Source: Vulcanimicrobiota bacterium (lineage in GTDB: Bacteria; Vulcanimicrobiota; Vulcanimicrobiia; Vulcanimicrobiales; Vulcanimicrobiaceae). Taken from it: DNA of 64,000 bases. This document shows positions 42,999 to 63,500 of the stretch, piece by piece. The first letter of the stretch is position 1; every line of letters begins with the position of its first letter. Under the pieces are notes generated by a model. That model made no database searches. It was not told where the DNA came from and was given only the letters and a program-made list of their open reading frames with translations. The stretch covers positions 1,054,931 to 1,118,930 of the forward strand of contig OY970311.1 in the NCBI GenBank assembly GCA_963716415.1. The letters run 5' to 3'. Position numbers and translations under genes: made by a program.

Positions 42999-43352
42999 TT
43001 ATGACTCCGAAGTGATCCGTTCTAATGATGCATTGATGCGGCGGAGTTCGTCGGTGAGTTGGTCGAGGATCAGCTCGCCCGCCGGTGAGAGCCGGTAGAA
43101 GCGCTTGCGGCGCTTGTTTTCTTCACGCCACTCGCTGGCCAAGAGCCCCTGGGTCTCCAGGCGACGCAAGAGCGGGTAGAGCGTGCCCTCGTCGATCTCG
43201 AGCCCGGCCTCCTCGAGCGCTTTGCGCAGGGTGTAGCCGTAGCGCTCGGTGCGCAGTTGGGCTAGCACCGCGAGGGTGAGGCACCCCCGCCGCAGTTCCA
43301 GGCGCAAGTTTTCGAAGAGCCCGGGAAGTTGACCATTGATGCTGTGTTCCAT
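42999..43352 (-). CDS. PadR family transcriptional regulator
   Basis: 'RGCLTLAVLAQLRTERYGYTLRKALEEAGLEIDEGTLYPLLRRLETQGLL'. Confidence 0.85.
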   Translation of the reverse strand: MEHSINGQLPGLFENLRLELRRGCLTLAVLAQLRTERYGYTLRKALEEAGLEIDEGTLYPLLRRLETQGLLASEWREENKRRKRFYRLSPAGELILDQLTDELRRINASLERITSES

Positions 43353-43358
43353 ATCCTA

Positions 43359-43369
43359 TGTGTTACACA
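43359..43369. promoter_or_regulatory. palindrome TGTGT-T-ACACA in the PadR / HTH-MNT divergent intergenic region
   Basis: Read directly from the sequence. It lies 7 nt upstream of the PadR start codon. Confidence 0.35.
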
Positions 43370-43397
43370 GTATACGGCGCACAGGCTTTGTGGTCAA

Positions 43398-43406
43398 TGC
43401 TATACT
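43398..43406 (+). promoter_or_regulatory. extended -10 element TGcTATACT, 7 nt upstream of the ATG at 43414 (possible leaderless transcript)
   Basis: Sequence 'aaTGcTATACTttgctacATG'. No Shine-Dalgarno motif fits in between. Confidence 0.4.
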
Positions 43407-43413
43407 TTGCTAC

Positions 43414-43941
43414 ATGGAGCGTACTATAGGACTCGGAGACCGGATCCATGCGCGACGCAGACAGGTCGGCATCTCGGCCGGTCGCCTTGCATCTGCTGTG
43501 GGCGTGACCGAGAATGCGATTCGTAAGCTAGAGTCGGGTGAAACAGCCGAGCCGCGCTTCAATACGGGGATGCGTATCGCTGAGGCCTTGGAGATGTCGC
43601 CCGAGGAGCTAGCGGGCGGCGCAGCTCGATCGCGTAACGCACCCGAGCTTGCGAAAGTCATCGGCGCAATTCGTTCAATACGAGACGCGCTCGAGCGCGA
43701 AGGCGTCGAACATCTCGACATTTTTGGGTCCGTCGCTCGCGGTGATGCCGGTCCGGAAAGTGACGTCGATGTGATCGTCACGCCGCGTGCGGACGCACGC
43801 TTCTCACTCTTTAACCTCTCCGCAGTGGGTAGCTCCCTCGAAGATGCGCTCGCGCGAAAAGTTGATATCGTCACGCCCTATACAGTGAAGAACTCGAAGC
43901 GCCTGCAAGGTGCGCTCGAGTATGCGGTCCGTGCATTCTAA
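43414..43941 (+). CDS. XRE-HTH fused to a MNT-type nucleotidyltransferase (MntA-like antitoxin)
   Basis: 'LGDRIHARRRQVGISAGRLASAVGVTENAIRKLESGE' followed by NTase 'IFGSVARGDAGPESDVDVIV'. Confidence 0.75.
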   Translation: MERTIGLGDRIHARRRQVGISAGRLASAVGVTENAIRKLESGETAEPRFNTGMRIAEALEMSPEELAGGAARSRNAPELAKVIGAIRSIRDALEREGVEHLDIFGSVARGDAGPESDVDVIVTPRADARFSLFNLSAVGSSLEDALARKVDIVTPYTVKNSKRLQGALEYAVRAF

Positions 43942-46419: not shown

Positions 46420-46941
46420 ATGCACCACGCGATCGACGAGAAGCCCTATACCGAGATTCTGGCCGGCCGGCTGGTCCGCAAGGTGAGCCCGCAGCGCCGC
46501 CACGCCCTATTGCAGCTTCGGCTGGGCGCGCTTGTCGCGCGGCTTGCCGGCGGGCGCGGCGACGTCGGAACCGAGTGGCGCTTCTACATGAATGCGCCGC
46601 ACGTTCCGCGGACGTCGCTCGTTCCGGATATCGCGTTCGTCGCGCGCGAGCGACTCGACGCGCTTGCGCCGGCGAAGCGCGAACAACCGCCACTCTCGCC
46701 CGATGTGGCGATCGAGATCCGCTCGCCCAACGATCGCCTCGCAAACGTAGAGTGGAAGATGCGCGCATATCTCGAGCTGGGCGGAACCCTCGCGCTCGAC
46801 GTGATTGCAGAAGCCGAGGAGATCCGCGCCTTCACTCGCGACGGGATGAAAATATTCGGGCACGGCGATCGCTTTGCGTGCGAAGCCGTGCCCTGGCTGG
46901 AGTTCGATATCGCGGAGATCTTCGCCGACCTGCGCGACTAA
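46420..46941 (+). CDS. Uma2 family (DUF820) PD-(D/E)xK endonuclease-like protein
   Basis: 'LVPDIAFV...PDVAIEIRSPND...K...YLELG' pattern. Confidence 0.7.
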   Translation: MHHAIDEKPYTEILAGRLVRKVSPQRRHALLQLRLGALVARLAGGRGDVGTEWRFYMNAPHVPRTSLVPDIAFVARERLDALAPAKREQPPLSPDVAIEIRSPNDRLANVEWKMRAYLELGGTLALDVIAEAEEIRAFTRDGMKIFGHGDRFACEAVPWLEFDIAEIFADLRD

Positions 46942-48541: not shown

Positions 48542-49223
48542 ATGAACATTGGAATCATCGGCGCCGGAAACATCGGCGGAAACCTGACGCGACGCCTGCG
48601 GGCGCTAGGTCACAACGTGTCGGTGGCAAACTCGCGCGGACCCGAATCGCTGTGGTCGCTCGTGCACGAAACCGGCGCGCAGGCCGTTACCGTTGAGGAC
48701 GCGGTAAAGAACAAAGATCTCATCGTCGTGACGATCCCCGAGAAGAACATCCCGATCGCTACCGAAGGGGCTGTTCGATAACCTCGGACCGAACGTCGTC
48801 GTGATCGATACCGGAAATTACTATCCGCAACAGCGCGACGGGCGCATTGCGGGAATCGAAGACGGTCTCACCGAGAGCGGCTGGGTCGAACAACAGATCG
48901 GTCATCCGGTGATCAAAGCGTTCAATAATATCTACGCCGCGCATCTGCTCAGCAACGCCAAACCCAAAGGCACACCGGGGCGCATTGCGTTGCCGGTTGC
49001 CGGCGACGATCCCAAAGCCAAGGAGATCGTGATGGATCTGGTCGATGCGCTCGGCTTTGATCCCGTCGACGACGGCACGATCGCCGACTCGTGGCGGCAG
49101 CAACCCGGCACGCCGGTCTATGCTGGGGACTTCGATGCAGCCGGCGTGAAGCGCGCCCTCGGCGAGGCGAGCAAGGAACGCAAACCGGAATGGCGCGCAA
49201 AGAGCACGGCTGGGGTATCATAG
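48542..49223 (+). pseudogene. NAD(P)-binding oxidoreductase (NADPH-dependent F420 reductase-like fold), interrupted by a 1-nt frameshift near 48750-48765
   Basis: 'MNIGIIGAGNIGGNL' Rossmann motif in ORF 48542..48781. The family continues as 'LPKGLFDNLGPNVVVIDTGNYYP...' in the +1 frame, joining ORF 48801..49223. Confidence 0.6.
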
Positions 49224-49227
49224 CGGC

Positions 49228-49407
49228 ATGAGTACCGAACGCGAAAACCCGCTTACGCCCAAAGAAGCGGAGTCAATGGGCCGTCAGACCGAGACGCACA
49301 CCCGCGGCGAAAAGATCAGCGATCAAGTCGTCTACGGCGACATCGAGTCGGTTGAAAATGAAGACCAGATGGACGAGCATCACGCCGACGCCGACGACAT
49401 CGTGTAG
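49228..49407 (+). CDS. small acidic hypothetical protein (59 aa, below the ORF-track cutoff)
   Basis: My manual translation: MSTERENPLTPKEAESMGRQTETHTRGEKISDQVVYGDIESVENEDQMDEHHADADDIV. The ATG lies 4 nt after the preceding stop. Confidence 0.3.
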   Translation: MSTERENPLTPKEAESMGRQTETHTRGEKISDQVVYGDIESVENEDQMDEHHADADDIV

Positions 49408-49422
49408 AAGCGGAAAAGAGAA

Positions 49423-49444
49423 GGGCGGGCAAGAGAGCCCGCCC
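49423..49444. terminator. GC-rich hairpin between convergent genes (GGGCGGGC-AAGAGA-GCCCGCCC)
   Basis: Perfect 8-bp stem. There is no clear U-tract, so its function as a terminator is inferred from position. Confidence 0.45.
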
Positions 49445-49453
49445 GTCCGTTAG

Positions 49454-50767
49454 TTACGAAACCACGCGCTTCTGTCTCCGTTCATGTTCGAATAGATGAA
49501 TGAGCGCTTTGTCGTAAAGAGCGCTCCAGACGCCCTTGCGTTTAAGCGCCACAACTGGGCTGCGCTGCGCCGAGATCGCGTCGGTTAAGGCATCGACTAG
49601 GGTCGGCCCGATTTCGTCGAGTAATTTGTACGGATCCTGCGTCCAGCTCGCATCTTCCTCGTCGCTAACGATCGTGCGCAATGCTGCAAGGATTGGCATC
49701 GCCAAACCGTCTGATGAGAGCCGATAGTCCACTTCCCTGTCAAGCGCGGGCTTCACGAGTGGCAGGAAATGGAAACTCGTGCTTCTCGTATTGTCGCATT
49801 CGTTGGTGCGCCGGAAGCGAGGACGCGAGGTACCGGTCTTACCGTCTGTAGCGCTATACCACTTGTCGAAATTCAGCACTATGTACTCTTTGAGCGCAAG
49901 AGCGTCGCAAACTAGGCCCCTGAGGCGCTTGTAGTTTTCGCGTTTTGCCACAAATTGCTTAACCGTCTTCTTTCGACTCCAGTAAGCTACATACGGCTGT
50001 TCCTCGCTGGCGAATTCTCGATTATCGAGGAGCGTCAGCAACTGGAGCACATAGACGATGTCGACCTGCTTCTCGTCCTCGCGGATTTCGTTCTGCTTAA
50101 AGGCTACGAGGTCGCGCATCCCCGGGACCTTGTCGAGCTGCTCCTTGACGAACTCGAACGATTTGGCAAGCTCTTCCAAAGCATATGCTTCGACGTTTAC
50201 CGAGAAGTTGCGAGCCTCGGAGATTTTCGGAATCTCCTCGACTGTGGCCCCGCGAAGAAGCTGAATTGTCACGAACTGGGTTCGCGGCTCCGCGCCGCGC
50301 TGCTTGTCGAACCACTCCTTGGAACCGACGGTCTCGTCAATGATGCGACAGGTGTGAGCCCCGTCGAGGTTCCCATGCAGGAACGGGTCGTCTTCCGTCC
50401 ACGTTAACGTCTCCGTCTTGTTGTCGTAGGAGAAGTTGTTCGCGGTGAACAGCATACCGCGATTTAGTCGATGGAACATTCCATCGCGCCGCAACAACGA
50501 TTCACGAATCGCCTTGGCTACAGGCGTCGAAAGGTTCTGCGTGCGTGGGTTTGGCTCGAGCGAGATTTTAGTGTTGGACGTTCGTGAGACGTTCTCGGCG
50601 CGGAAGGCTTCGGGGCTGTCCGATTCCAGCACGAGGTTGCGGAATTTCTCAACGTCGACGCGCGCCTCCATTACCGCATAGGTTTCAGCCGGGTCTCCAA
50701 AGAGGTCCCGGTCGGAGGTCACTTTCACGGCGTGCGACGGCACGCCAAGGATTGTGTATTTAATCAT
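49454..50767 (-). CDS. AIPR-like abortive-infection family protein (tentative)
   Basis: No enzymatic motif I can name with certainty. 'FLHGNLDGAHTCRII' resembles the NG-QT core of AIPR proteins. The context is an R-M neighbourhood. Confidence 0.4.
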   Translation of the reverse strand: MIKYTILGVPSHAVKVTSDRDLFGDPAETYAVMEARVDVEKFRNLVLESDSPEAFRAENVSRTSNTKISLEPNPRTQNLSTPVAKAIRESLLRRDGMFHRLNRGMLFTANNFSYDNKTETLTWTEDDPFLHGNLDGAHTCRIIDETVGSKEWFDKQRGAEPRTQFVTIQLLRGATVEEIPKISEARNFSVNVEAYALEELAKSFEFVKEQLDKVPGMRDLVAFKQNEIREDEKQVDIVYVLQLLTLLDNREFASEEQPYVAYWSRKKTVKQFVAKRENYKRLRGLVCDALALKEYIVLNFDKWYSATDGKTGTSRPRFRRTNECDNTRSTSFHFLPLVKPALDREVDYRLSSDGLAMPILAALRTIVSDEEDASWTQDPYKLLDEIGPTLVDALTDAISAQRSPVVALKRKGVWSALYDKALIHLFEHERRQKRVVS

Positions 50768-50960
50768 TTCTCTTCCCTTTATGCCGGCCAGGTGTCCCTA
50801 AGCCGGTGGTGGATATCGACCCGACCTTCCGGTGCGAGCCGTCCCGCCAAATGGCGGGCGTGATGGTTACGACGTGGCGGGCGATCCCCTGCCTCGTCCC
50901 TCTTACTATACCCCAACGCGCAGAAAGGTTTCAAGCGCCGCGGGATTACATCGACAGGGG

Positions 50961-52439
50961 ATGGGCGCCACACGCATCAGCGCGGCTATGCTCTACGACT
51001 ACGTCTCGTGCGAGCATCGGCCGTGGATGGACCTCTACGCCGACTACGGCGACCGCGATGATGTCAGCCCGTTTCTCGAGCTGCTATGGCGAAGGCAGCG
51101 AGCACACGAAGAGGATGCGATCGCGGGCGAAGAGGTCATCCGCCTCGACGAACTCGAGAACAACGACGCTCGTGCTACTAAAACGCTCGAAGCTATGCGC
51201 GCCAACGTTGCGCTGATCTTCCACGGGCGTATCGAATCTGACGACCTCGCCGGCGAACCCGATCTACTGAGACTGGAGAACGGCAAATACCTACCGGGCG
51301 ACATCAAAGCCGGGGCTGGCGAAGAAGGCGACGGTGAAGACCGCCGGCCGAAGAAGCGCTACGCTGTGCAATTGGCACTCTATGTCGACGTTCTCGAACG
51401 GCTTGGTTTTTCGGATGGCAAGCGCCGCGCGTTCGTCTGGGACGTCAACGACGAAGATGTTCCGTACGACCTAATGGCAGCGAAAGGGCCACGCACACCC
51501 GGCTCTCTTTGGGACGACTACGAAGAAGCACTACGCGCGGTACGCGAGATCGTCGCTGGCACGCGCAATCCTGGACCTGCGTATCACGGCGAATGTAAGC
51601 ACTGTATGTGGTACGACGCATGCATGCGGCGACTAGAAGAACTGGACGACTTGACGCTGCTCCCGGGACTCGGCAGGTCGCGCCGCGATGGACTCATCGA
51701 GCACGCGAACACAATCGCCGCCCTGGCGACGCTCGTTCCAGACTCGCTCTTGGATGAAAAGGGGAGGAGTCGTGTAAAGGGGACCGGTCCCGATATGATT
51801 CTCCGATTTCGCGAACGTGCGGTGTTGAGGCATACTCACGGCACCCCGTATCTCCGGGAGGAGCTTAATCTACCTGAAGCGGAGACGGAACTCTTTTTCG
51901 ACATCGAGACGGACCCAGGACGCAATCTCTGCTATCTGCACGGATTCAGCGAACGCCGAGACGGCGAAGAGAAGTACGTCGGCTTCTTCACGACTGCGCC
52001 CACTCCTGATGCGGAACGCGAATCGTTCGCAGAAGCGGTCGCCTACGTCCGCTCGAAGATGCCATCGGTAATGTATATCTACTCGAAGTACGAGCGCACG
52101 TGGTGGCGCGCTCTTCAGGAGCGCTATCCAGAAGTTTGTACTCGAGCAGAGATCGATGAAATGTTCGACGAGTCTCGAACCGTCGATTTGCTGGCGGTCG
52201 TTCAATCATCGACGGAATGGCCTACGAAAGATCACACGATCAAGGCGCTTGCGCGCTATCTCGGCTTCGAGTGGCGCGACACGCATCCGTCTGGCTTCGC
52301 CTCGATCGAGTGGTACGACCGCTATGTTGCCGGTGACGTTGAGGCGAAGGCCCGCATCCTGGAGTACAACGAGGACGACTGCGTAGCCACGCGCGTGCTG
52401 CTCGACGGAATCCGCGGCCTCAAGATACGCGAGCCGTGA
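50961..52439 (+). CDS. TM0106-family RecB-like nuclease: Cas4-type PD-(D/E)xK + 4-Cys cluster, HhH, RNase H-like exonuclease
   Basis: 'YDYVSCEHRPW', 'GEPDLLRL..GDIKAG', 'QLALY', 'ECKHCMWYDAC', 'LTLLPGLGRSRRDGL', 'LFFDIETDP...YLHGF', 'YNEDDCVATRVLLD'. ATG at 50961 with AGGGG upstream. Confidence 0.65.
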   Translation: MGATRISAAMLYDYVSCEHRPWMDLYADYGDRDDVSPFLELLWRRQRAHEEDAIAGEEVIRLDELENNDARATKTLEAMRANVALIFHGRIESDDLAGEPDLLRLENGKYLPGDIKAGAGEEGDGEDRRPKKRYAVQLALYVDVLERLGFSDGKRRAFVWDVNDEDVPYDLMAAKGPRTPGSLWDDYEEALRAVREIVAGTRNPGPAYHGECKHCMWYDACMRRLEELDDLTLLPGLGRSRRDGLIEHANTIAALATLVPDSLLDEKGRSRVKGTGPDMILRFRERAVLRHTHGTPYLREELNLPEAETELFFDIETDPGRNLCYLHGFSERRDGEEKYVGFFTTAPTPDAERESFAEAVAYVRSKMPSVMYIYSKYERTWWRALQERYPEVCTRAEIDEMFDESRTVDLLAVVQSSTEWPTKDHTIKALARYLGFEWRDTHPSGFASIEWYDRYVAGDVEAKARILEYNEDDCVATRVLLDGIRGLKIREP

Positions 52440-52453
52440 GCCTCGAACCAATA

Positions 52454-52481
52454 CCGATGGGCAGTTCTCACCCTCCATCGG
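52454..52481. promoter_or_regulatory. inverted repeat CCGATGG-N14-CCATCGG between the nuclease gene and the HTH gene
   Basis: Perfect 7-bp arms. It could be a terminator hairpin or a C-box-like operator. Confidence 0.3.
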
Positions 52482-52535
52482 GGTCTGCCAGGTCGGGCGC
52501 ACAAAGGCCAACGAAGATGCCGCCCGGAGGGACCG

Positions 52536-52760
52536 GTGACTGACGTGGCGGATCGAGGTCCGATGAGCAATTTCGACCCTGCCCGCCTCGCGGAAATACG
52601 CAAGTCCAAGGGGATGACCCAGCGTGAGCTTGCCCGGACCGCAGGCGTCTCGCAGGCACTCGTGGCGGAACTCGAGCGTGGCAAGCATCCGCCGTCCTCG
52701 AACTCGTTGGCAAAACTCGCCTCAGCGCTAGCGGTCAGAGAGGCTGACTTCGCAAAGTAG
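52536..52760 (+). CDS. XRE family HTH protein (controller C-protein candidate)
   Basis: 'LAEIRKSKGMTQRELARTAGVSQALVAELERGKHPPSSNSLAKLASAL'. Its stop abuts the next ATG (TAGATG). Confidence 0.7.
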   Translation: MTDVADRGPMSNFDPARLAEIRKSKGMTQRELARTAGVSQALVAELERGKHPPSSNSLAKLASALAVREADFAK

Positions 52761-53798
52761 ATGCCAAAGACCGAAAAGACGCAGGTTTTCGATCATCTCT
52801 TCCGGTGGCGATACGACCCCGAAGGTAACAAATCGCTTCGATGGGACGAAGCGACGCAAACCATCCCCGAAGACCGTCGTCTCGTGTATGCGCATGAAGT
52901 GCTCTTTGCCATAAGAGATACTGGCGCAAAACTAGGCAACAACCAGGCGGCAAATTTTACGAAGGATTTTCTTCGGAAAGAATCGCGGAACGCGAACTGG
53001 CCAGAAAGACTAGCGCAGCTGCGATGGACAATCGAGCAGGTTACGGGCAAAGACGACGCAACACAGCTGCCGCGCAACTTCATCTTCAAACGGTACGAGG
53101 AACGGGACGACGTCCCATTTCCGGACAGATGGCCCACACCCGACGATGCACAGCAGCATGAGATACAATCCGTCACTCTCTCCGTTGCATCGAAGCAGAT
53201 CGAGCGCATGGACGAAGCCCGCATGATGCAGATCGCCGTGGATCTGCGCGTCGTGGAGACGCACTTTGCTCTTTATTCGCCGCTCTCGACGGAAGAATAC
53301 AAAATCGTGCATATGGACCACCTTCAGATGGGCCTGAAGCTGCGCGGCTCCGAAATCGACGGATTGTATCTAGCAGAATTCCAAGATGAGAGCGGCGTTC
53401 GGCATCCTGTCCTGATCACCGTTGAAGCTAAGAAGCACGACGAATTCGTAAATGGTTCGCAAGTGGTCGCACAGGTCGAGGACGCCTCTGCGCTAGGAGT
53501 TGGTGCTGAACAAATCATTCCGATAGCCATAAAACATCGCGATGGAGGCATGTATATTTTCGAGTTTGCCCCGTACGATGTTCCGAATGGCAAGCGCTTC
53601 GACAAGGATTCTCTAGACGCGACCTCGCTCAAACTGACAGCGGCAGTCTTTTACGAAATCAAGCCACAGATCGTTGGATTTTCGGTGAAGGCGCGTCGAC
53701 CGAAGACCGCTACACGCAAGAATGGCCGTCTCGTTTTGATCGAGGCGGAGCCGGATCCCGACCTTCTGAAAGACGACGAAGACGACGATGGCGACTAA
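52761..53798 (+). CDS. candidate type II restriction endonuclease (PD-(D/E)xK-like motif), acidic C-terminal tail
   Basis: 'EIDGLYLAEFQDESGVRHPVLITVEAKKHDE' fits D-x22-E-x-K. It follows an HTH gene and converges on the methyltransferase operon. I recognise no family. Confidence 0.4.
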   Translation: MPKTEKTQVFDHLFRWRYDPEGNKSLRWDEATQTIPEDRRLVYAHEVLFAIRDTGAKLGNNQAANFTKDFLRKESRNANWPERLAQLRWTIEQVTGKDDATQLPRNFIFKRYEERDDVPFPDRWPTPDDAQQHEIQSVTLSVASKQIERMDEARMMQIAVDLRVVETHFALYSPLSTEEYKIVHMDHLQMGLKLRGSEIDGLYLAEFQDESGVRHPVLITVEAKKHDEFVNGSQVVAQVEDASALGVGAEQIIPIAIKHRDGGMYIFEFAPYDVPNGKRFDKDSLDATSLKLTAAVFYEIKPQIVGFSVKARRPKTATRKNGRLVLIEAEPDPDLLKDDEDDDGD

Positions 53799-54514
53799 CG
53801 GCGTTTCGTGAGCGCCACGCCAAAGCGGGGACAAAAATCCTCGAATGGACACTCAGCGCAGAGTGGCCTCGCAACGCAGATGGCGGCCCCGATGTCGAGC
53901 AATCCAAAGTTGGTCTCTCGCGCGTCGTCACTCGCGCCTGCTATCGCGTCGGCAATGCGCTGAAAGATAACCGCTCGCGGATCCTTAGTGCGAATTCGGA
54001 AGACACGCCGAATGATCCGCGCTACGTTGGCATCGACAATCCCGACTTTCTCACCACGACCGAAGCTTGCTATCGCCCGCGCGGCATATGCTCCGAGTCC
54101 TGGGACATCCCGAAACAAGATCCGCCAATCCTCGAAAATCGCGCTCCTAGAATTCGCCGCTATCTTCGACATCGCGATCAGTTGGCTCGTGCGCTTCTTG
54201 GACAATCCGAGGGGTCCAAGCACCTCTTCGATATCGCGCACATTTGCAGCCGCCATCGCGTCTGCGCAGGGGTAATCGAGTATAAGCGCGCTGTAAGTCG
54301 GGGCGGCAGTAGTCGCACGTGTCTTCTGGAGAAGAATCTCCGCGACGGCGAGACGGAAGGGATCGCGCTCCGTGCGCCACGGGAATTTGCGCCCCGCGCG
54401 CCTGAAATACGCTGCGGATTGCGATGCTACTTCGCGCGCCAGCTCCTTTCTCGGCCGACTAAGCCCTCTGGCGTGGCGTCGCGCGACTGCTATTTTCGCG
54501 GCGAGTACTCCTAT
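53795..54514 (-). CDS. HhH-GPD superfamily DNA glycosylase with 4Fe-4S loop (Mig/MutY/Nth-like); no canonical start codon for the full domain
   Basis: 'FPWRTERDPFRLAVAEILLQKTRA', 'VPGLGAYAARAI', 'VDANVARIIRRVF', 'CVARPLCAECPFEDFC'. The frame is open from 54514, but the first ATG/GTG/TTG is at 54256. Confidence 0.7.
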   Translation of the reverse strand: MGVLAAKIAVARRHARGLSRPRKELAREVASQSAAYFRRAGRKFPWRTERDPFRLAVAEILLQKTRATTAAPTYSALILDYPCADAMAAANVRDIEEVLGPLGLSKKRTSQLIAMSKIAANSRSAIFEDWRILFRDVPGLGAYAARAIASFGRGEKVGIVDANVARIIRRVFRIRTKDPRAVIFQRIADAIAGASDDARETNFGLLDIGAAICVARPLCAECPFEDFCPRFGVALTKRR

Positions 54515-55440
54515 TTAACGAGACGTCTTCTCGATTTTGGAATTCTTGCGACATCTGCACCGAAATGTCGCGCTGCACCGAGCCGGTCGAAAGCCAAGAG
54601 AGCCGGGTCTCCAAGACGGATTGCCTTCGTTGGCTTCGCTGGCTCAAGGTCGAGCGCACGAACGATGCATTGTGCAATTGCGCGTCCAAACAAGGGCGGC
54701 ACAGCATTGCCGATACTTCGAAACCCGTTCCATTTCGTTCGATGAAGGCGAAACCAATCGGGGAAGGAGTGCAGGCGCGCGGCTTCGCGCACTGAGATCA
54801 CGCGCGGCAGCGTCGGGTGCAGTGGTCGAGGTGAAGTGTAGGCGCCTCGTTCGCTACCAGTGCCTGCGCGCAATGTGTTGCAGAGGCCTCCGCGGTCTAG
54901 CCGGTAGAATCGAGAGATCTTCTCTGTTTCGCCTTCCTTCGTACGTCTGAACCGACCAATCGACTCGCGGGTGTGCTCCGTTCGCATCGAAGAAGTCAAA
55001 ACGGATGGATCCCATTTTCTGGGATGGGACAGGTCCTCCGGATCTTCGAGTTCACTCCGCAACCGACGTGCATAGTCCGACATAGCTCCGTGCATTCTTC
55101 TGTGCTCGGTCTTGGTGAGTCTCACTTCGTCAGTCGTGCTTAGCACCTCGAACTCATCTAGATCCGGAATGTCGCCGATCGCGTCCCACACAGTGGGACC
55201 CGCTGGCAGCTCTTCCAGAGGTAGGGTTAGAGCGAGTTGCTTTTTGCCTGAGCGTTTGGCTGCGCGCCTCACCACCGGAGTTGGATAGTGCGCGATATTT
55301 TCGCCGTTAAGAGCCCCGATAAGTATTAACCGTCGGCGATCCTGAGGTACGCCGAAATCCGCGGCGCTCAAAATTGCCTGCTTACGAACGTCAGCCATCT
55401 GAACCGCAATCGTATAGCCGTGCTTGCGGAACCGGTCCAT
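54511..55440 (-). CDS. DNA (cytosine-5)-methyltransferase, C-terminal part (motif VIII, TRD, motifs IX-X)
   Basis: 'AADFGVPQDRRRLILIG', 'VREAARLHSFPDWF', 'RSIGNAVPPLFGRAIA'. Its ATG overlaps the preceding stop as TGATG. Confidence 0.85.
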   Translation of the reverse strand: MDRFRKHGYTIAVQMADVRKQAILSAADFGVPQDRRRLILIGALNGENIAHYPTPVVRRAAKRSGKKQLALTLPLEELPAGPTVWDAIGDIPDLDEFEVLSTTDEVRLTKTEHRRMHGAMSDYARRLRSELEDPEDLSHPRKWDPSVLTSSMRTEHTRESIGRFRRTKEGETEKISRFYRLDRGGLCNTLRAGTGSERGAYTSPRPLHPTLPRVISVREAARLHSFPDWFRLHRTKWNGFRSIGNAVPPLFGRAIAQCIVRALDLEPAKPTKAIRLGDPALLAFDRLGAARHFGADVARIPKSRRRLVK

Positions 55441-56066
55441 CAGCGCGCTAGGATGCCGGCGTGGCCGCCTGTCACCATACCCGGAACGTTCTCCATGACG
55501 AAATAGCGCGGCTTGATGGCTCCAATCAAGTCGGCGAACTTGTAGACTAGCTTGTTGCGATCATCCGAGACATCGCGCTTCCCCATTGTACTAAACCCCT
55601 GGCAAGGCGGACCGCCGAAGATGCAGTCAATTACTCCCGTCCAATCGGAATCAGCGTGGCCGTGTGCCGCGAAGCCCTTCTTAGCAGCTTCCAGCAAAAT
55701 GGGCGCCTCTATGCGCGCCACATCGTCGCACACGACTTTCGTTAGGGGAAAATTGAATTCATGAACGGCGGCGTGAACCGGATCGTACTCGACCGAAGCA
55801 ACAATGTCGAAGCCAGCCTGCTCAAAGCCGAGCGACAGGCCACCGACCCCGGCGAACAGATCGATCGCGATCGGGCGTCTAACCTGTCGCTTTTCAATCG
55901 ACGCGCTCGCGGAGATACGCCGCCCTGTAACGTGTGCCTTCGGGGTACACCCCTTCCGTGTTGGCACCGGTCTCGCCACTACCTGCTGTATCCACTGATT
56001 TTCCACTCCCAATATATAGTTGTCCCCACGTTCTTCACGCGCGAACGTATGTTCGTATGATACCAC
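55440..56066 (-). CDS. DNA (cytosine-5)-methyltransferase, N-terminal part (motifs I-VI)
   Basis: 'IDLFAGVGGLSLGF', 'GGPPCQGFSTMGKR', 'YFVMENVPGM'. GTG start at 56066. Confidence 0.85.
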   Translation of the reverse strand: MVSYEHTFAREERGDNYILGVENQWIQQVVARPVPTRKGCTPKAHVTGRRISASASIEKRQVRRPIAIDLFAGVGGLSLGFEQAGFDIVASVEYDPVHAAVHEFNFPLTKVVCDDVARIEAPILLEAAKKGFAAHGHADSDWTGVIDCIFGGPPCQGFSTMGKRDVSDDRNKLVYKFADLIGAIKPRYFVMENVPGMVTGGHAGILAR

Positions 56067-56106
56067 TTGTCAAGGATATGTTGTTGCCGATTTGTTTCCG
56101 GCGCGG

Positions 56107-56612
56107 CTAGAGAACGGCTTTTAGCCTCTCGATCTTCAAAGCGAGGAGCGCCATAGCGATAGTGCCCACCTCTGCGTACAGATACGCGGCGACAATACGA
56201 AGGTCCGATAGGTCGGGCGCGTACCGATAGTGCCTTATGAATGCGGAGATCCGTCCTTGGCGCGCGCTGAACTCCGCGCCGGCGCGATCCGCAAGATAGT
56301 CTCGCCAGTCCCGACCTTGCTTCTTCGTATTACAATCTCGGCACGCCGGCACAATGTTGCCCCACGCGTGCAACCCGAGACTTGCGCGATTAGTTGGTAC
56401 CAGGTGGTCCTGCGCCTCATTGCCCGGGCGCAGTTCTTCGTTGCAGTAGCAGCAGCAGTCGCCGAAATACTTTTTATCTCAGCGAAGTTTTTCCGCGATC
56501 CGTAGGGCTCTAGGCCTCGCTTCCGGTCGTAAACCTCGCCCATCTCCTGGAGGAAGATTCGCAGTGCAGTGTTCGCGATACCGGCCCTACCGCGAGGCAC
56601 CTGGCAGCACAA
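56107..56612 (-). pseudogene. HNH endonuclease, reading frame broken at an A5 run (coding strand; T5 at 56471-56475)
   Basis: 'DCCCYCNEEL...DHLVPTNR...HAWGNIVPACRDCNTKKQG' is an HNH/Zn-finger core. The N-terminal '...RKNFAEIK' is in another frame, and one extra A would join the two. Confidence 0.65.
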
Positions 56613-56624
56613 TCTCGACCGGAT

Positions 56625-57236
56625 CTACAGTAAACATCGACCCTCTAGGGCCTTGGCTAACGTGACTTCGTCTGCATAGTCCAGATCGCTGCCGATGGGG
56701 AGCCCGTATGCCAAACGGGACACCGCAACGCCGATTGGCTGAAGCAATCGCGAAATATAAAGTGCCGTTGCTTCGCCTTCGGCGTTTGGATTCGTCGCGA
56801 GGATGATCTCGGCTGGGTTTTCGAGGCCGATTCGCTCGACCAGCTCCTTCACGCGCAGCTGTGCGGTGCCGATGCCATCCATGGGCGAGATCAGTCCGCC
56901 GAGCACGTGGTAGCGGCCCTTGAACGCGCCGGTGCGTTCGATCGCGTAAATGTCTTTCGCTTCCGCGACGACGCAGATGATCGTGCGATCGCGCTCTTCG
57001 TCCGTGCAGAGATCGCATGGATCTTCCTCCGTCAGCGAAAAGCACACCGAACAGAAGCGCACTTTGTCTTTCACTGCGAGAATTGCTTCGGCAAGTGATT
57101 GCGCTTCGTTGCGCGGGCGATTCAACAAATGAAACACCAACCGCGCAGCCGTTTTTTGGCCAACGGTCGGAAGTTTCGAAAACTCGTTGATGAGGGCTTG
57201 CACCGGCCCCGTGATGGAGCCGCTTTTTGTTGGCAT
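56625..57236 (-). CDS. recR: recombination protein RecR
   Basis: HhH 'LPTVGQKTAARL', Zn finger 'CSVCFSLTEEDPCDLC', Toprim 'ICVVAEAKDIYAIE'. Confidence 0.9.
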   Translation of the reverse strand: MPTKSGSITGPVQALINEFSKLPTVGQKTAARLVFHLLNRPRNEAQSLAEAILAVKDKVRFCSVCFSLTEEDPCDLCTDEERDRTIICVVAEAKDIYAIERTGAFKGRYHVLGGLISPMDGIGTAQLRVKELVERIGLENPAEIILATNPNAEGEATALYISRLLQPIGVAVSRLAYGLPIGSDLDYADEVTLAKALEGRCLL

Positions 57237-57552: not shown

Positions 57553-60500
57553 CTAGAATTCGCCGGGCGGCTTGCCAACCTTCTGTGAGACGTTGAAGTT
57601 GATCGTGCCGCTGTGCAGGTGGCTGCTGAACAGATAGCTGCCGCCCAGGCGGAAATCGAGGCCGTGTTTGCCGCTCACCTCGAGCGTCGGTGCAATATTC
57701 CAGAGCGTGCGATCGATCGACGAGTTGAACTCGGTCATCCCCAGCGCCGCGGGCTCCCCTTGCAGCATCGCCGAGACCGAGGTTTGGTTATTCCCGAGGA
57801 ACTGCGTGGCAAAGAGATCGACGTGGAGCCGCAGGTGCTGCTCCCCGATCGAGCCCATAGCGCCGCTGAACTGCAGGCCCGGCTGCAGCGTCACGAACGA
57901 GTCCGCCGTGCCCTGCGTCGTAATGCTCAAGCCACCCGCGCCGCTCTCGCTCATCGGGCTCATGTACATGCGGGTGTCGTTGAGCGCGAGGTACGGCGTG
58001 AGCGTCCATCCGCCGCGCAGCTGCAACCGTTTTTCTGAACGCAGGCCGCCGCTGAGGAACGATACATGCTGGGTAGAGAATGCCTGCGTGTCAGGCGTTG
58101 CGATCGTCCCGTAGCCGGTCGCGCCGTCGGCATCCGAAATCGACTGGCTCGGAAACGTAATCCAGCGATTGGATTGATAGCTTGAAACGCCGCCGGTGAG
58201 CTGGGCCGAATAAACAAATCCGGTACCGGCTTCGCGCTTGAGGAACGCGCCCGCCATGTAGCGCCAGCCCGTCATCGTGGTCGAGTTCACGTACAAGTTG
58301 TCGTTGGTGAAATTCAAACCCGCGCCGAAGAGCGTGCGCTTATCCGAGCTTATCGCGCTTTCGGTGCCGAGGTTCACGCCCGTCGCGCTCTCGTTGTAGC
58401 CGAGGATCGCGCCGCTCTCCATTTGCGATGTCGACGTATTGCCGATCGTCCCCCAGACGCACCGGTTGCCGGCGGTTGACGCGAACGTCGCCTCGGTCGC
58501 GCGGCATGCAGTCATCTGCTGCGAGAAACTCAGCGCGTTGGTCAGCGTCGCCGCTTCCACCGCGCCAAAACTTTCGGGCGTGACCTCGTCGTAGATACGC
58601 TCGAGTTGCGACGTGTTGGCGCTGCTAATTGCTTGCGCAATCATGCCTTGCAGCGACGGCGACGATCCGGCCGTTTGCACCGCGTTGAGATAGCTCCCGA
58701 CCTCTAGGCCCTCGGGCGTGAGCCCCGCTGGATCGAAGTCGACGTGCGATTGCAACATCACCGTGCCGTTCGGTCCGGGATCCAGGGTATAGTGCACGAT
58801 CGCCGATGGCGCCGTGCTCAACGTCATGGAATCCGACAGCGTGCCGTCGGCATCAATCAACGTGAAGGTGTGCGTGCCGGGTTGCGCGCTGCCAAGGCCC
58901 ACCGAAGCGATCGCCAACGTCCCTTGCAGCGCTGCATTGCCGGTGACGAGCAGTTCCGGCGGATCCGGCGCACCAATATTGACCGCCTCGAGCAGCGTGC
59001 CGCTCGACCCTTGGGTAAGATTGCCGTTGATCGTCGTCTCGCCGCCGTTATTTAAGAACCCGATCGCGAGCGTGCCGTTGTTCGTCAGCGTGTTGTTGGT
59101 GCCGCCGAGATTCACGACCGGACCCGCTTCGAATGTTCCGTTGTTGGTAAACGTATTCGTGCCGCCGGGCGCGAGCCAAACCGAGCCGGCCATCGAGCCG
59201 TTGTTCGTGATCGTCGTCGACGCGGTGTTCGACACGACAGCGTATCCATTCGTGTCCTCAACCAGACCGTTGTTGGTCAACGTCGCATTCATCCCAGCAA
59301 CAAAGTTGATCGCTGCAGCAGACGGCGCCGTGCTCGGATTCGTACTGGGGCCCGCCGCGCCCGAGATCACCGAACCCGTCGGCCGCACGACCATGTTGAG
59401 CGCACCGCCGCCGCTCCGGCCGGTGCTCGATTCCACGATCGCACTTGCGTTGAGCGCGTCGACGAGTCCGCCGACGTTCACCGTCACGCGACCACCCACC
59501 GATCCGCTGCCGGATGCGCTTTGCGCATAGATGCCGACCGCATTTGCACCGGTGGTAATGTCTTGTGCGCCCTGCCCGAACATCACCGACACGAGGCTGG
59601 CCGATCCCGTGCCGCCGCCGCTTCCCGCAAAGAACGTCCCCGCCGCACCGGCGTATCCGCCGCCGCCGCCAACCGATTGCGCGAAGATGCCGTCGGATGC
59701 AACGCCCGTTGTCTCGATCGAGCCGTTATTCACAATCGTGACGGCGCTGCCGCTTCCGGAACCGCTCTTCAACGTGGCCGTCGTCGGTGCGGCGATTGCG
59801 CCGCCGCCGCCGCCGATCGATTGGGCAAAGATCCCGAACGACGAATCGCCCGTTGTTTCGATCGTTGCGCCCGCGTTGTTGGTCACGTTCACGGTGTTGG
59901 CGCCGCCGCTCGCATTATTGCTCGCGCCGAGCATCGACCTCACCGTCTGCGTGTCGGTGAAATATCCGCCGCCGCCGCCAATCGATTGTGCAACGATGCC
60001 GTTGGCAAGTTGCCCTTCCGTAGCGATGCCGCCGCTGTTCGTCACGTTCACGGTGTTGCCGTTGCCGCCCGATCCGCCGCTTGCGCCAAGGAAGATCCCG
60101 ACGGGAACGTAGCCGGCGACGCCGCTGTAATTTGCGCCGGCGTTACCGCCGCCGCCGCCGATCGACTGCGCGATGATGCCGTTCGCGAGCGCGCCATTCG
60201 TTTCGATTATTGCCGCGGAGGTCGTCACCGTCACAGCACCGCTTGAACCGCCGGCGCCGCCCGACGCACCGAATGCTAAACCCAGACCGCCGAAACCGGC
60301 CGCGCCCGCAACCGTAAAGCCACCATTGCCGCCGCCGCCGCCGATCGATTCCGCAACGATCGCATTGGATTCAATCCCGTCGGTGAACATGCTTCCGGTT
60401 TGCGTAACGCCCACCGTCCCGCCGCTTCCACCTAAACCGCCGCTCATACCATACGCGCCGGTTCCGCTCACCGCCGGACTCAACGTTCCGGAAACGGCGT

Positions 60501-63500
60501 ATCCGGCGTTGCCGCCGCCGCCGCCGATCGATTGCGCGAGAATGCCGTCCGCAACATTGCCTTGCGTTTGAATCTGTCCGTTGTCGGTAAGGCTGATCTG
60601 CCCGCCGCTACCGCCGCTACCGCCCGATGCACCGAGCGCGACATTGATACCTAAACTCGATGTGGCTTGTCCGCGCACCGCGTCGCCGCCGCTCCCGCCG
60701 CCATTGCCGATTGATTCCGCCATGATCCCGATGGAAAGATCGCCTTGCGTCACGATTGCGCCGTTGGTATTCGTCGATTGCACGCTCACATTGTTGCCGC
60801 TGCCGCCGCTGCCGCCGTAACCGCCCATGGCTACGCCGCCGGTAATCGACTGGGTGACGCTGCCGCTCACCGCTAAACCGCCGTTGCCGCCGCCGCCGCC
60901 CACCGACTGCGCAAGAATGCCGTCGGATTCAACGCCGGTCGTTTCCAACATCGCGGCCGTGTTGGTCACGCTCACGGCACCGCCGCTGCCGCCGGCACCG
61001 CCGGACGAACCGAACTGCATACCCGGAAACGCGACGGGATCTTGGCTAATGCTGATGCTGCCGCCAACCGCCATGCCGCCCTCACCGCCGCCGCCGCCAA
61101 CCGATTGCGCTTCGATCGCCGCGGACTGCGCGCCGCTCGTCATGATGCTGCCCGTGTTGGTCACCGAAACCATGGCGCCGTTCCCGCCGCCGGCGGTGCT
61201 GCCCATGTCGAGATCGAGACCCTTGATCGCATTCGCAATGGGCTGGCCAAACGTCGTCGTCTCACTCGCACCGCCAAAGCCGCCGCCGCCGCCGACGGAT
61301 TGCGCGAGAATGCCGTCGGATTGATCGCCTTGCGTTTCGATCGTGCCGTTGTTCGTGAGGTTCACCGTACCGCCGTTGCTCGCGTCGCCACCGCTGCCGT
61401 ACTTGAATCCGCCCCCACCACCGCTCGGCGTCACTTTCGCGTTGACTTTGAATCCAGCGGATCCGCCGCCGCCGCCGATCGATTGCGCCTCGATGCCGGC
61501 CGATTCGCCGCCGCTCGTGCTGATGGCGGAATAATTCGTCACCGTGACGGTGTTCGCGTCGGCGCCGCCACCGCCGGCGCTGCCGAGCGCAAGCCCCGCG
61601 TTCGGCGAACCGCTGAAAAGACTATTCGTCGTACCGGCCGCCGCGGCAACGCTGAAGCCGCCGTTCCCGCCGCCGCCGCCGATCGATTGTGCAAGGATGC
61701 CTTGCGATGAATCGCCCAAGGTTTCGATCATCGTGCTGCCGCCGCTCGTGCCGCTGTTGACGGTGACGGTGTTGCCGGTATTTCCAGCGCCGCCGTTCCC
61801 GCCGAAGGCGACTGCGATCGTGTTGCCGGTCGTGTTGAGTGATGCATTGACGGCGAATCCACCGTTGCCGCCGCCGCCACCGATCGATTGTGCGTCGATG
61901 GCCGCAGAGTCGGTGCCGTTGGTTCGGATGGAATCGAAGTTGCTGACGCTAACCGTGTTGCCCGAACCGCCGCTCCCCGCGTTGCCGCCGAAGGCGAGCG
62001 TGGCACTCCACGTCGGATCATTTGCCGGCGGCGACGTTCCGGCTTGCGCTTGGAACGTTACCGCGAAACCGCCGTTGCCGCCGCCGCCGCCGATCGACTG
62101 CGCAAGAATGCCGTTGGCATTGTCACTGTTGGTGATCAGTCCAACGCTCGTCGTTGCTGTTGCACTGCCCGCGGTCACGCCCACCGTGCCCGCACCGCTT
62201 CCGGTACCGCCGCTGCCGCCGAACGCTGCCGTCACCGACGCATTATTCTGCACTTGACCGGGCGGCGCAACCGCGGCCGACGCGTTGACGACGAAACCGC
62301 CGTTGCCGCCGCCGCCGCCGATCGATTGCGCTTCGATCGCGCTCGCGTTTTCACCAAAGGTCTGAATGTTTGCGGTATCGGAGAGCGTGACGTTGCCGGC
62401 GCTTCCGCCGCTTCCGCCCTTGCCGCCCAATGCGACCGAGTTAGTCGTGCCGCGCGCATACGTCGCGGTGACCGACCAGCCGCCGTTTCCACCACCGCCG
62501 CCGATCGATTGCGCGAGCACGCCGTCGGCATCCACACCTTTGGTGATGATGTTCGCGCCGTTCGTCACCATCACGACATCACTGTTGCCACCGCCACCGC
62601 CTTGACCGCCAACCGTCACGTTCGTGCCGCTCGAGTATCCCGTGCTTGGCGTCGTCGCGACTTGCCCCGATACGACGAAGCCGCCATTGCCGCCACCACC
62701 GCCAATCGATTGTGCGAGAATACCGTACGACTCAAAACCCGACGTCAGAATTTGCTGACCGGTGCTGGTGACCGATACGCCGTAGCCGTTCCCACCGGCA
62801 CCGCCCTGGCCACCAACCGCGACGGCAATGCTCGTGTTGGGGCCGCCGGCCGCGAGCGAACCGCTCACCGAGAAGCCGCCGTTGCCGCCGCCGCCGCCGA
62901 TCGATTGCGCAGCAATACCGGTGGATTCATCACCGTACGTGACGACGGTGCTCTGCGAGGAAACGGTCACGGTATTTGCGCCGGCTCCGCTGCCACCGTC
63001 GCCGCCGACGGCAACATTGACCGCCACCTTACTCGACGAGCTCAGCGAACCAGCAACGGCGAAGCCGCCATTGCCGCCGCCACCACCAATCGATTGCGCG
63101 AGAATTGCGTCGGACTCTTCGCCGCCGGTTTGCAGGGTCGTCGCGCCGGTCGTCACCGACACGCTTGCGCCGTTGCCGCCATTGCCGCCGTCGCCGCCGA
63201 CCCCGACGCTAACCGTGCCGCCGCTCGTAATGCCGCCAGCAACACTGAATCCGCCGTTACCGCCGCCACCGCCGATCGACTCCGCGAGAATGTCGTTTGC
63301 ATTTGCGCCTTGCGTCGTAATGCTGCCGCTGTTTTCGGCGACGACGACGTTGTTCGCCTCGGCGCCCGTTCCGCCGGATCCGCCGAGCGAAAATGCAAGT
63401 CCGGGTGCACCGCTTGAGATCGCGCCGCCAACGCTGAAACCGCCGTTGCCGCCGCCGCCGCCGATCGATTCGGCAGCAATGCCGCTCGATTCGTTGCCGC

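Follow-up and report, generated by a model that had tools for sequence, protein, structure and literature searches.

Introduction

Type II restriction-modification (R-M) systems in which a controller (C) protein accompanies the endonuclease, such as those of the PvuII, BamHI and Esp1396I type, are well described. C5-cytosine DNA methyltransferases can also be paired with a Mig-type glycosylase, as M.MthTI is with Mig.MthI on the Methanothermobacter plasmid pFV1, and this partnership is functionally like that of Dcm with Vsr. Genes of the AIPR family have been linked to R-M systems and operons (Iyer, Abhiman & Aravind 2008; Makarova et al. 2012, 2013; PMC2292703, PMC3506569, PMC3632139). The COG2251/TM0106 family, by comparison, is described as uncharacterised, with predicted Cas4-like and 3'-5' exonuclease parts (PMC3985635, PMC3424549), and our literature search for TM0106, COG2251 or PF13482 in a defence or R-M context returned classification papers only. 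Here, we have analysed a block of genes at positions 49454-56612 of a 64,000-nucleotide stretch of DNA from a Vulcanimicrobiota bacterium (assembly GCA_963716415.1, contig OY970311.1, positions 1,054,931 to 1,118,930), referred to throughout as the window, in which an AIPR gene and a TM0106 gene adjoin a Type II R-M system.

We consider that this block is probably an accessory anti-phage cassette with a C-protein-controlled Type II R-M core, and that its site, flanked by the core gene recR on one side and a MacAB/HlyD-type efflux operon on the other, is a variable hotspot. A preliminary description of the block, made from its sequence, had listed nine open reading frames (ORFs). These are all present with the domain types named there, but they resolve into seven genes, for AIPR, TM0106, C, the candidate endonuclease R, the glycosylase V, the methyltransferase M and an HNH protein (Table 1). 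Loci from other assemblies with which the window was compared are denoted by L numbers.

Table 1. Features of the block and its edges, with positions in the window (nt, nucleotides; aa, amino acids; HTH, helix-turn-helix).
Feature	Position	Strand	Basis and remarks
Small acidic ORF, 59 aa	49228..49407	(+)	In segment absent from L004
Intrinsic terminator hairpin	49423..49444	(-)	8 G-C pairs, 6-nt loop, T-rich minus-strand tail TTCTCTTTTC
AIPR (AbiU1/AIPR family), 437 aa	49454..50767	(-)	PF10592 (E = 2e-20); divergent from TM0106
AIPR/TM0106 divergent intergenic region, presumed promoters	50768..50960	(.)	Sequence
TM0106-family nuclease, 492 aa	50961..52439	(+)	TIGR03491 (4.5e-62); PF13482 (RNase_H_2, 1.3e-25); PF12705 (PDDEXK_1, 1.7e-7)
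C (controller) protein, XRE-type HTH, ~65 aa	52563..52760	(+)	HTH_3 (8e-15); PADLOC Control_protein (3e-7)
R, candidate Type II restriction endonuclease, PD-(D/E)XK, 345 aa	52761..53798	(+)	Motif, model, context
V, Mig.MthI-like T:G mismatch DNA glycosylase	53795..54514	(-)	HhH-GPD; PDB 1KEA; 239-codon open frame
M, C5-cytosine DNA methyltransferase	54511..55931	(-)	PF00145 on both halves; interrupted at 55440-55443
HNH endonuclease pseudogene	56107..56612	(-)	Frameshift at A5 run near 56472-56476; probable start GTG 56600
recR 3' third, putative cassette recombination boundary	56625..56841	(-)	Core gene; mosaic divergence

Results

Recurrence of the cassette

Six of the seven genes recur together elsewhere. 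In loci L089, L090, L096 and L097, the genes for AIPR, TM0106, C, R, V and M are arranged and oriented as in the window, with protein identities of 75, 71, 68, 65, 63 and 72%, respectively, and the chromosomal neighbourhood is unrelated to that of the window, containing a secretin, a trypsin-like protease and a DDE transposase. L119 has the L089-type arrangement minus R. Other copies are reduced or altered. In L083-L085 the order is TM0106-C-R-V-M, and AIPR is replaced by a pair of genes directly upstream of TM0106 (L083 4590-6976; L084 1921-4256; L085 4276-6569), one encoding a paraMORC-like HATPase_c_3 protein with a weak PADLOC match to MzaB and the other a PF20553 ('Methyltransf_35') protein; L087 and L088 have AIPR-C-R-V-M without TM0106, and L093 and L094 keep a TM0106 fragment. 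The C-R-V-M set is conserved in at least eight diverged loci, and of 13 independent close R-M loci about 9-10 have TM0106 as well, a count which includes three extra co-occurrences obtained by cross-matching the R and TM0106 match lists. Where present in the cassette, TM0106 is always the gene immediately preceding C, in the same orientation, and the AIPR subfamily hardly occurs away from this R-M family. Judged by their shared content, order and orientation, AIPR, TM0106, C, R, V and M are thus a recurrent cassette and not a chance mixture. The ratio of nonsynonymous to synonymous substitution rates (dN/dS) was about 0.09-0.10 for TM0106, C and HNH; most comparisons were saturated, with dS not computable, such that values were obtained for these three genes and recR only. 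A ratio of this size, close to 0.1, reflects past purifying selection.

The block had been read in the preliminary description as a composite island of a Type II R-M module plus accessory nucleases. Much of this stands, in that the block is accessory, of defence type and made up of R-M genes with extra nucleases, but it is not an ad hoc composite, given that the collinear cassette recurs at 63-75% identity elsewhere. It is nevertheless quite possible, if short of an even chance, that the R-M genes, TM0106, AIPR and HNH are functionally independent and have merely been gathered in one hotspot. Some cassette copies do without TM0106 and others without AIPR, TM0106 homologues also lie beside BREX-like genes (L118) and SbcCD/McrBC (L120), HNH occurs only in the recR-adjacent versions, and the hotspot of related genomes holds unrelated defence cargo. 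The retention of the same genes, order and orientation in the unrelated context of L089 and L090, and in L119, is harder to reconcile with such independence, as are the fixed position of TM0106 and the near restriction of the AIPR subfamily to this R-M family.

A PADLOC v2.0.0 run on the ORFs, as the preliminary description had proposed, recovered R-M components (MTase_II, Control_protein and, on V, REase_II 'nicking'), together with weak matches to Cas4 on TM0106 and to PtuB/PDC-M01B on HNH, and no other named multi-gene system.

TM0106 and AIPR

The TM0106 protein matches TIGR03491 over its full length with 210.5 bits (curated cutoff 97.45). Its N-terminal part is a Cas4-like PD-(D/E)XK domain with four cysteines, and its C-terminal part has an RNase-H fold corresponding to a PolB-exo-like predicted 3'-5' exonuclease. 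The motifs of both parts can be read in the protein as EPDLL, GDIK, QLALY and C..CxxCx5C (the Cas4-type D, DxK, QxxxY and four Cys) and FFDIETD (the exonuclease DxE). The gene most likely starts at ATG 50961. Homologues with 64-80% identity lie upstream of C in L083-L085, L089, L090, L119 and L121, and the family as a whole is large, with at least 1879 homologues at E <= 1e-20. A tblastn search with TM0106 against plasmids gave no matches, and neither TM0106 nor AIPR found a match in sequence searches of the PDB.

The AIPR protein is matched by PF10592 over residues 70-388 with 74 bits (cutoff 25). Its subfamily is small, a cutoff of E <= 1e-10 giving no more than 10 proteins. Four of its five closest relatives (at least 69% identity) are on contigs with this cassette, and the fifth is on a 2.9-kb contig. 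An AlphaFold2 (AF2) model of AIPR (predicted local distance difference test, pLDDT, 74.5) gave no fold match when searched against the PDB with Foldseek, the best entry being SspE at E = 0.94, and no HEPN or additional nuclease domain was detected in the protein. Its PADLOC match is weak (PDC-M07A, E = 0.009). Between AIPR and TM0106 there is one sigma-70-like match on the minus strand (50934-50905), which is a consensus match only.

The controller and the candidate restriction endonuclease

The C stop codon directly abuts the R ATG, and C is upstream of, and co-oriented with, R in all cassette homologues. The motif CGGATCGA at 52541-52548, 8-12 nt upstream of the C ATG, is conserved in seven diverged cassettes (the window, L083, L085, L087, L089, L091 and L093) and could be a ribosome-binding region or a piece of the controller operator. 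It was the sole conserved element upstream of C, where no clear palindromic operator (C-box) was found.

R has 36 homologues, amongst which E198, D200, E222 and K224 are invariant (ExD...ExK). In an AF2 model (pLDDT 85.6), these residues are surrounded by an alpha-beta-beta-beta-alpha-beta core, as in PD-(D/E)XK nucleases, and faint PD-(D/E)XK entries (CinB, SPARDA and ACE1) are present in the Foldseek list. Alignment of the R family to a member of the PADLOC REase_II set (a 277-aa family) with hhalign was collinear, with E = 2e-4. The genomic context is more telling. R adjoins a co-diverging C5-methyltransferase in every orientation, whether convergent, divergent or tandem, including in simple two-gene systems: where R is 60-67% identical, M is 67-72% identical, and where R is 33-36% identical, M is 45-48% identical. 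The homologues at 60-71% identity are in C-R-V-M arrangements (L083-L085 and L087-L095), those at 33-36% in the two-gene pairs, and one branch of the family pairs instead with an N4/N6 methylase (L086). A scan of viral contigs (viral_contigs) found no relatives of R, and a cluster-based taxonomic look-up of the R homologues gave a single name, Vulcanimicrobiaceae. Because of its conserved adjacency to and co-divergence with M, its PD-(D/E)XK core and its remote REase_II homology, R is very probably the restriction enzyme partnering M, from an unnamed family.

The 277-aa family is itself represented among these loci by a gene between V and M (L091 10709-11542; L119 10132-10968; L121 12502-13335). 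The L121 copy scores E = 4e-102 against a PADLOC Type II REase model, and no PDB sequence match was found for this protein. From its alignment with R it appears to be a distant paralogue, which lies beside or replaces the R family; some loci may therefore have two endonucleases.

Integrity of M, V and HNH in the window copy

Two further assemblies, L081 (an ENA contig of 47.5 kb) and L082 (a Logan contig), encode the exact R protein and carry a block 99.9% identical to that of the window. They bear directly upon the 'two-part' C5-methyltransferase of the preliminary description, which we find instead to be one gene with a 1-nt deletion. The two halves match contiguous positions of the PADLOC MTase_II model PDLC03326 (3-135 and 141-408; E = 1e-49 and 4e-86), and motifs I, IV, VI, VIII and X are readable as FAGVGG, PPCQGFS, ENVPGM, QDRRRL and GNAVPP. 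The deletion, at 55443, makes a TGATG stop/start overlap: the window reads GCGCGC-TGATGG, against GCGCGCCTAATGG in L081 and L082, where M is a single 494-aa ORF. Every M homologue is a single ORF (447-507 aa), and this holds for the L081 and L082 copies, which are ~99.9% identical to the window's at the DNA level.

Split C5-methyltransferases able to complement are known, both natural (M.AquI) and engineered, and the break in M is of a kind that could allow this, since it falls between motifs VI and VIII, loses only one residue and gives a clean stop/start overlap by which translation of complementing halves might be coupled. A genuine two-subunit enzyme of the M.AquI kind is nonetheless quite improbable when every homologue, including two that are ~99.9% identical, is a single ORF. 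The split is not conserved and therefore is not an evolved architecture, and we reject an evolved two-subunit methylase on this ground.

Of the seven differences that separate the window from L081 across the block, three are indels, and two of these have a substitution beside them, a pattern that long-read consensus errors typically leave. Another assembly of the island has R and AIPR products in truncated form (P0012 and P0164). Next to the block, a frameshift near 48770, in a GGGG run, splits an F420/NADP-oxidoreductase-like gene at 48542-49223 (+) into ORFs of 79 and 140 aa. This could be a long-read indel or a real pseudogene; L004 carries an intact 261-aa version. Given the indel-rich differences, the flanking oxidoreductase frameshift and the truncated products elsewhere, the split in M is more likely a long-read consensus error or assembly indel than biology, and would otherwise be a very recent mutation.

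The case of V is different. The V frame is open for 239 codons (54514-53795) and not 153, the 153-aa ORF being the portion after the first ATG. Its best PDB match is 1KEA (Mig.MthI; E = 5e-25, residues 34-231), with PGLGAY of V aligned to PGVGKY of Mig such that the tyrosine falls on Y126, which replaces the EndoIII lysine; the VDAN aspartate and a Cx6Cx2Cx5C four-cysteine iron-sulphur loop are kept. PADLOC matches V to PDLC03398, 'Type II nicking endonuclease' (2e-14). Upstream of Met87 (54256) the open frame contains no ATG, GTG or TTG. In relatives, translation of V is coupled to that of M, with V starting at a GTG or ATG that overlaps the M stop (TAGTG, TGATG), and the window has ATAG at the same place. 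The frame is conserved over the N-terminus from about residue 4-30 onward, and the V sequence is identical in L081 and L082.

HNH is also interrupted. Adding one A at the A5 run yields a 168-codon frame with a Pfam HNH score of 25.2 bits (cutoff 21.4), and the frameshift is identical in the window, L081 and L082. Because the absence of a V start codon and the HNH frameshift are common to all three assemblies, both are taken as real. The HNH gene, listed as a nuclease in the preliminary description, is thus a pseudogene in all three. An intact orthologue (163 aa, 65% identity) lies between M and recR in L121 only, and HNH is absent from all other cassette copies.

One might conclude from these defects, namely the M deletion relative to L081 and L082, a V without a canonical start before Met87 where relatives use GTG or ATG at the M stop, and an HNH frameshift in three assemblies, that the window copy is a decaying remnant which no longer works; L119 shows in addition that R can be lost from such cassettes. 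We think this unlikely. R, C, TM0106 and AIPR are intact, with 100% protein identity in L081, and an intact R without M should be lethal. The character of the differences from L081, the G4-run frameshift in the flanking oxidoreductase and the truncated R and AIPR products of the other assembly all point towards sequencing error in M, and the V frame has stayed open and conserved over its N-terminus. The split methylase, split HNH and short glycosylase are lesions or artefacts, and read-level checks are called for before any of them is taken for biology.

The recR hotspot

We compared the window with 80 species-representative recR loci, the best of which encodes a RecR 90% identical to the window's. 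By its RecR relatives the window, from an uncultured soil bacterium, falls in the Eremiobacterota/Vulcanimicrobiota (WPS-2) and is Baltobacteraceae-like. What lies downstream of recR in these relatives varies: an HlyD efflux gene within 72 bp (L006); an oxidoreductase and then HlyD (L004); GGDEF-EAL genes (L001, L002, L003 and L016); a Schlafen-group-3-like helicase (PADLOC PDC-S41/Nhi/AbiO-like) with a MazG-like pyrophosphatase gene (L013, at 11655-13922, and L079); an unknown 373-aa gene with HerA, a methylase and a Schlafen-group-3-like helicase (L005 10625-17143); or DruF/DruL-like (Druantia-like) genes, with a 115-bp TM0106 relic just after recR (L022 11187-13765). Since the cargo varies at one site among relatives, the recR/HlyD interval is a variable hotspot, and one rich in defence cargo. 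To our knowledge, recR with HlyD/MacB has not been described as a hotspot anchor pair.

The block is missing from the recR-HlyD interval of L001-L006, L013, L016 and L079, so the comparison of ybaB-recR synteny that had been suggested in the preliminary description places it among accessory DNA. Relative to L004, in which homology with the window picks up again only at 49143, the extra segment runs from about 49224 to 56624, giving a 7.4-kb accessory block adjoining recR. This segment includes the 59-aa ORF of Table 1, which has no Pfam or PHROG match and no tblastn match in the 80 recR loci, and which may be part of the insert or of an older variable region.

L121, a sister genome, has a related cassette at the same chromosomal site, in the order ybaB-recR-HNH-M-x277-V-R'-C-TM0106 (x277 being the 277-aa gene), followed by Druantia-like DruE/DruF. 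Its proteins are 76% (M), 53% (V), 34% (R', 296 aa), 81% (C) and 80% (TM0106) identical to those of the window, and its Druantia-like genes, with DruE at about 1350 bits, occupy the distal hotspot (L121 767-8879). L022 looks like a deletion derivative of this L121-type arrangement, because it has the TM0106 relic and Druantia-like genes beside recR. A cassette shared at one site might suggest that the region is ancestral core and not an acquired block, but we find this hardly credible. Close relatives lack the block in their recR-HlyD interval, its third-position G+C (GC3) and tetranucleotide composition are atypical, and against L121 the island is more diverged (67-71% nucleotide identity) than the backbone (81-92%). 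Ancestral core status is accordingly refuted by synteny.

Composition was examined across the window and is not uniform, GC3 and tetranucleotide deviation setting the block apart. The preliminary description had put G+C at 52-53% inside the block and about 67% in its flanks; there is a real drop, but its size was overstated, as the computed values are 57.6% for 49454-56612 and 62.5% for the remaining window. The block is the lowest-G+C 7.2-kb stretch of the window, ~2.5 standard deviations under the mean of such stretches, with 500-bp values from 0.52 to 0.64, and its near flanks are lowish in G+C too (recR/ybaB 0.56-0.60; 48.5-49.2 kb 0.58-0.61). GC3 separates the block better than overall G+C does, at 0.66 in block genes vs 0.75 in 17 other window genes (Mann-Whitney p = 7e-4), and tetranucleotide deviation, with a baseline of 0.12-0.17, has its peak here, at 0.26-0.29.

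The edges are as first described. On the left is the GC hairpin with its 8-bp all-GC stem and T-rich minus-strand tail, which reads as a strong terminator ending the AIPR gene, between the convergent small ORF and AIPR. The right edge, 56612, leaves 12 nt to the recR stop codon (56625-56627). The absence of the usual marks of integration was also borne out: domain searches of the block ORFs found no integrase, transposase or recombinase domain in any of them, no tRNA was found in 40-64 kb, no direct repeats flank the block edges, and a search for att-like sites gave short chance matches only. A classical integrative island, which would have an integrase, tRNA or direct repeat, is rejected.

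Probable exchange of the cassette within recR

Two comparisons bear upon how the cassette is gained or exchanged. Between the window and L081/L082 there are 19 differences in the 217-bp recR 3' patch and only seven in the 7159-bp block (Fisher p = 2e-24), corresponding to 91% and 99.9% identity, respectively. A comparison meant to show which of the two recR 3' patches, that of the window or that of L081, is foreign found them equally distant from all other loci. Between the window and L121, nucleotide identity falls along recR from 92% in the 5' third to 86.5% in the middle and 69% in the 3' third; it is 84% in ybaB and 81% in an autotransporter-like gene, as against 71% in M and 67% in HNH. 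As the cassette and the end of recR are more diverged than the backbone, the recent histories of the two islands differ, with a breakpoint inside recR. These mosaic patterns point to cassette turnover by homologous recombination with recR as the anchor and a crossover in the recR 3' third, and not by an integrase. L081 itself departs from recR at window-equivalent 56981 into DNA of 36-50% G+C with only tiny ORFs (L081 7599-14414), which is probably a chimeric assembly join.

The position of HNH raises another route. On this view HNH would have been a free-standing homing endonuclease whose cuts in recR alleles lacking the island let the cassette in by repair, with co-conversion of the recR 3' end, and HNH would later have decayed. 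In the window as in L121, HNH directly adjoins the recR stop. Phage HNH endonucleases are the best PHROG matches to HNH, the recR 3' third is diverged like the island and unlike the backbone, and a pseudogene is what would be expected late in a homing cycle. We regard HNH-assisted homing as very improbable nonetheless. The weak PADLOC matches of HNH are to defence HNH proteins of the PtuB/PDC-M01B type, other cassette copies move without any HNH, and the combination seen between the window and L081, of a divergent recR patch with an identical block, is the opposite of simple co-conversion. Homologous recombination anchored in recR remains our preferred reading.

Other genes of the window

In the efflux operon, a Uma2-family putative endonuclease gene (PF05685, 2e-15; 46420-46941, +) separates the HlyD membrane-fusion gene from the MacB-type ABC genes, and it is also present in L004 and L079. 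At 43336-43941 (+) lies a fusion of HTH_3 with a nucleotidyltransferase domain (NTP_transf_2/Polbeta), possibly a toxin-antitoxin-type component. A 2141-aa glycine-rich ORF at 57553-63978 (-) contains dozens of 'SIGGGGGNGGF' repeats and probably ends in a beta-barrel; it has no Pfam match and shows the most deviant composition in the window (tetranucleotide distance up to 0.37).

Discussion

The arrangement of the genes suggests how the cassette may work. C and R form one plus-strand unit, with M and then V converging on it from the minus strand. M would methylate host sites at cytosine-5 and R would cut unmethylated incoming DNA, with C expected to delay R expression after entry of the cassette into a new cell. 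V could remove T from the T:G mismatches that follow deamination of 5-methylcytosine, which would limit the mutagenic cost of the methylase. We infer these enzymatic activities from the identities of the genes. More speculatively, TM0106 might degrade, resect or process the cleaved DNA ends and AIPR might provide an abortive-infection back-up, although both may alternatively be just co-selected neighbours. The HNH gene beside recR is a dead remnant, and the cassette as a whole was probably gained or exchanged by homologous recombination through a crossover in the 3' third of recR.

A number of observations weigh against this account. R belongs to no named REase family: it has no sequence match in Pfam, NCBIfam, PADLOC, PHROG or the PDB, including a search of the PDB with an R profile, its model has no significant Foldseek match in the PDB (best E = 0.004, TM <= 0.2), and the hhalign link to REase_II has a probability of 46% only. 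TM0106 and AIPR have been lost separately, the former from L087, L091 and L095 and the latter from L083-L085 and L121. Since the TM0106 family is large and also found near other defence genes, its co-location with the R-M genes may be defence-island clustering rather than a sign of shared mechanism. The recombination route is drawn from two pairwise comparisons only, and one of the contigs involved, L081, looks chimeric beyond recR. Finally, with M frameshifted in the window, the V start lost in three assemblies and HNH dead, this copy may be partly decayed. The recurrence of the cassette in unrelated contexts, the pairing of R with M and the variability of the recR site lead us to retain the reading of an accessory R-M cassette in a hotspot as the probable one.

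A stronger proposal would be that AIPR, TM0106, C, R, V and M together make up one integrated defence system, and not an R-M system that merely has neighbours. TM0106 would then work on what restriction or Mig-initiated repair produces, resecting cut phage DNA for instance, and AIPR would be the abortive back-up for cases in which restriction fails. We hold this to be unlikely. If it were true, however, it would give a first biological role to the large and function-less TM0106/COG2251 family. Even without it, the cassette provides a first context-based lead for these widespread uncharacterised nucleases, which are encoded here by the first gene of the C-R unit and elsewhere in BREX-like and McrBC neighbourhoods. 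Beyond this, the analysis suggests a likely restriction-endonuclease role for an unnamed 36-member family always found beside a co-diverging C5-methyltransferase, and it documents, for the uncultured phylum Eremiobacterota, a defence hotspot that has recR as its anchor, with signs of integrase-free cassette swapping within the anchor gene. The block is otherwise a solid but fairly ordinary defence island, and the practical value of the findings is modest.

How, then, does the locus compare with systems already described? The preliminary description did not recognise the combination as a described system. This is borne out for the recurrent association with TM0106, which appears to be undescribed, but Type II R-M with a C protein, AIPR beside R-M and the pairing of a Mig-type glycosylase with a C5-methyltransferase were already known. 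The closest parallel is with C-protein Type II R-M systems of the PvuII/BamHI/Esp1396I type, with which the window shares a small XRE-HTH gene abutting the endonuclease gene, a separate methyltransferase transcription unit, a PD-(D/E)XK candidate nuclease and the character of a mobile unit of atypical composition. The difference is that the endonuclease here comes from an unnamed family and that no C-box was found. M and V resemble M.MthTI and Mig.MthI in that V is directly downstream of the C5-methyltransferase, its start overlapping the M stop in the window's relatives, and Mig.MthI (1KEA) is the best solved relative of V; they differ in that the host is bacterial, the R-M partner is another and V lacks a canonical start at the position used by relatives.

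The site is also reminiscent of integrase-free defence hotspots between core genes, since the recR and HlyD/MacB anchors bracket varied defence cargo in relatives and the window site has no integrase, tRNA or att-like repeat, with a mosaic anchor gene. It departs from them in lying in an uncultured member of the Eremiobacterota and in having a recombination route for which two comparisons are available. The AIPR gene fits the known occurrence of AIPR/AbiU1 genes in R-M operons, being above the PF10592 threshold and adjoining an R-M system, whilst differing in its short length, in its divergent pairing with TM0106 and in the very small size of its subfamily. The TM0106 protein, for its part, is a full-length member of the TIGR03491/COG2251 family with catalytic motifs in both domains, and what sets it apart from the family as described is that, in this cassette, its gene is recurrently the first of a TM0106-C-R unit.

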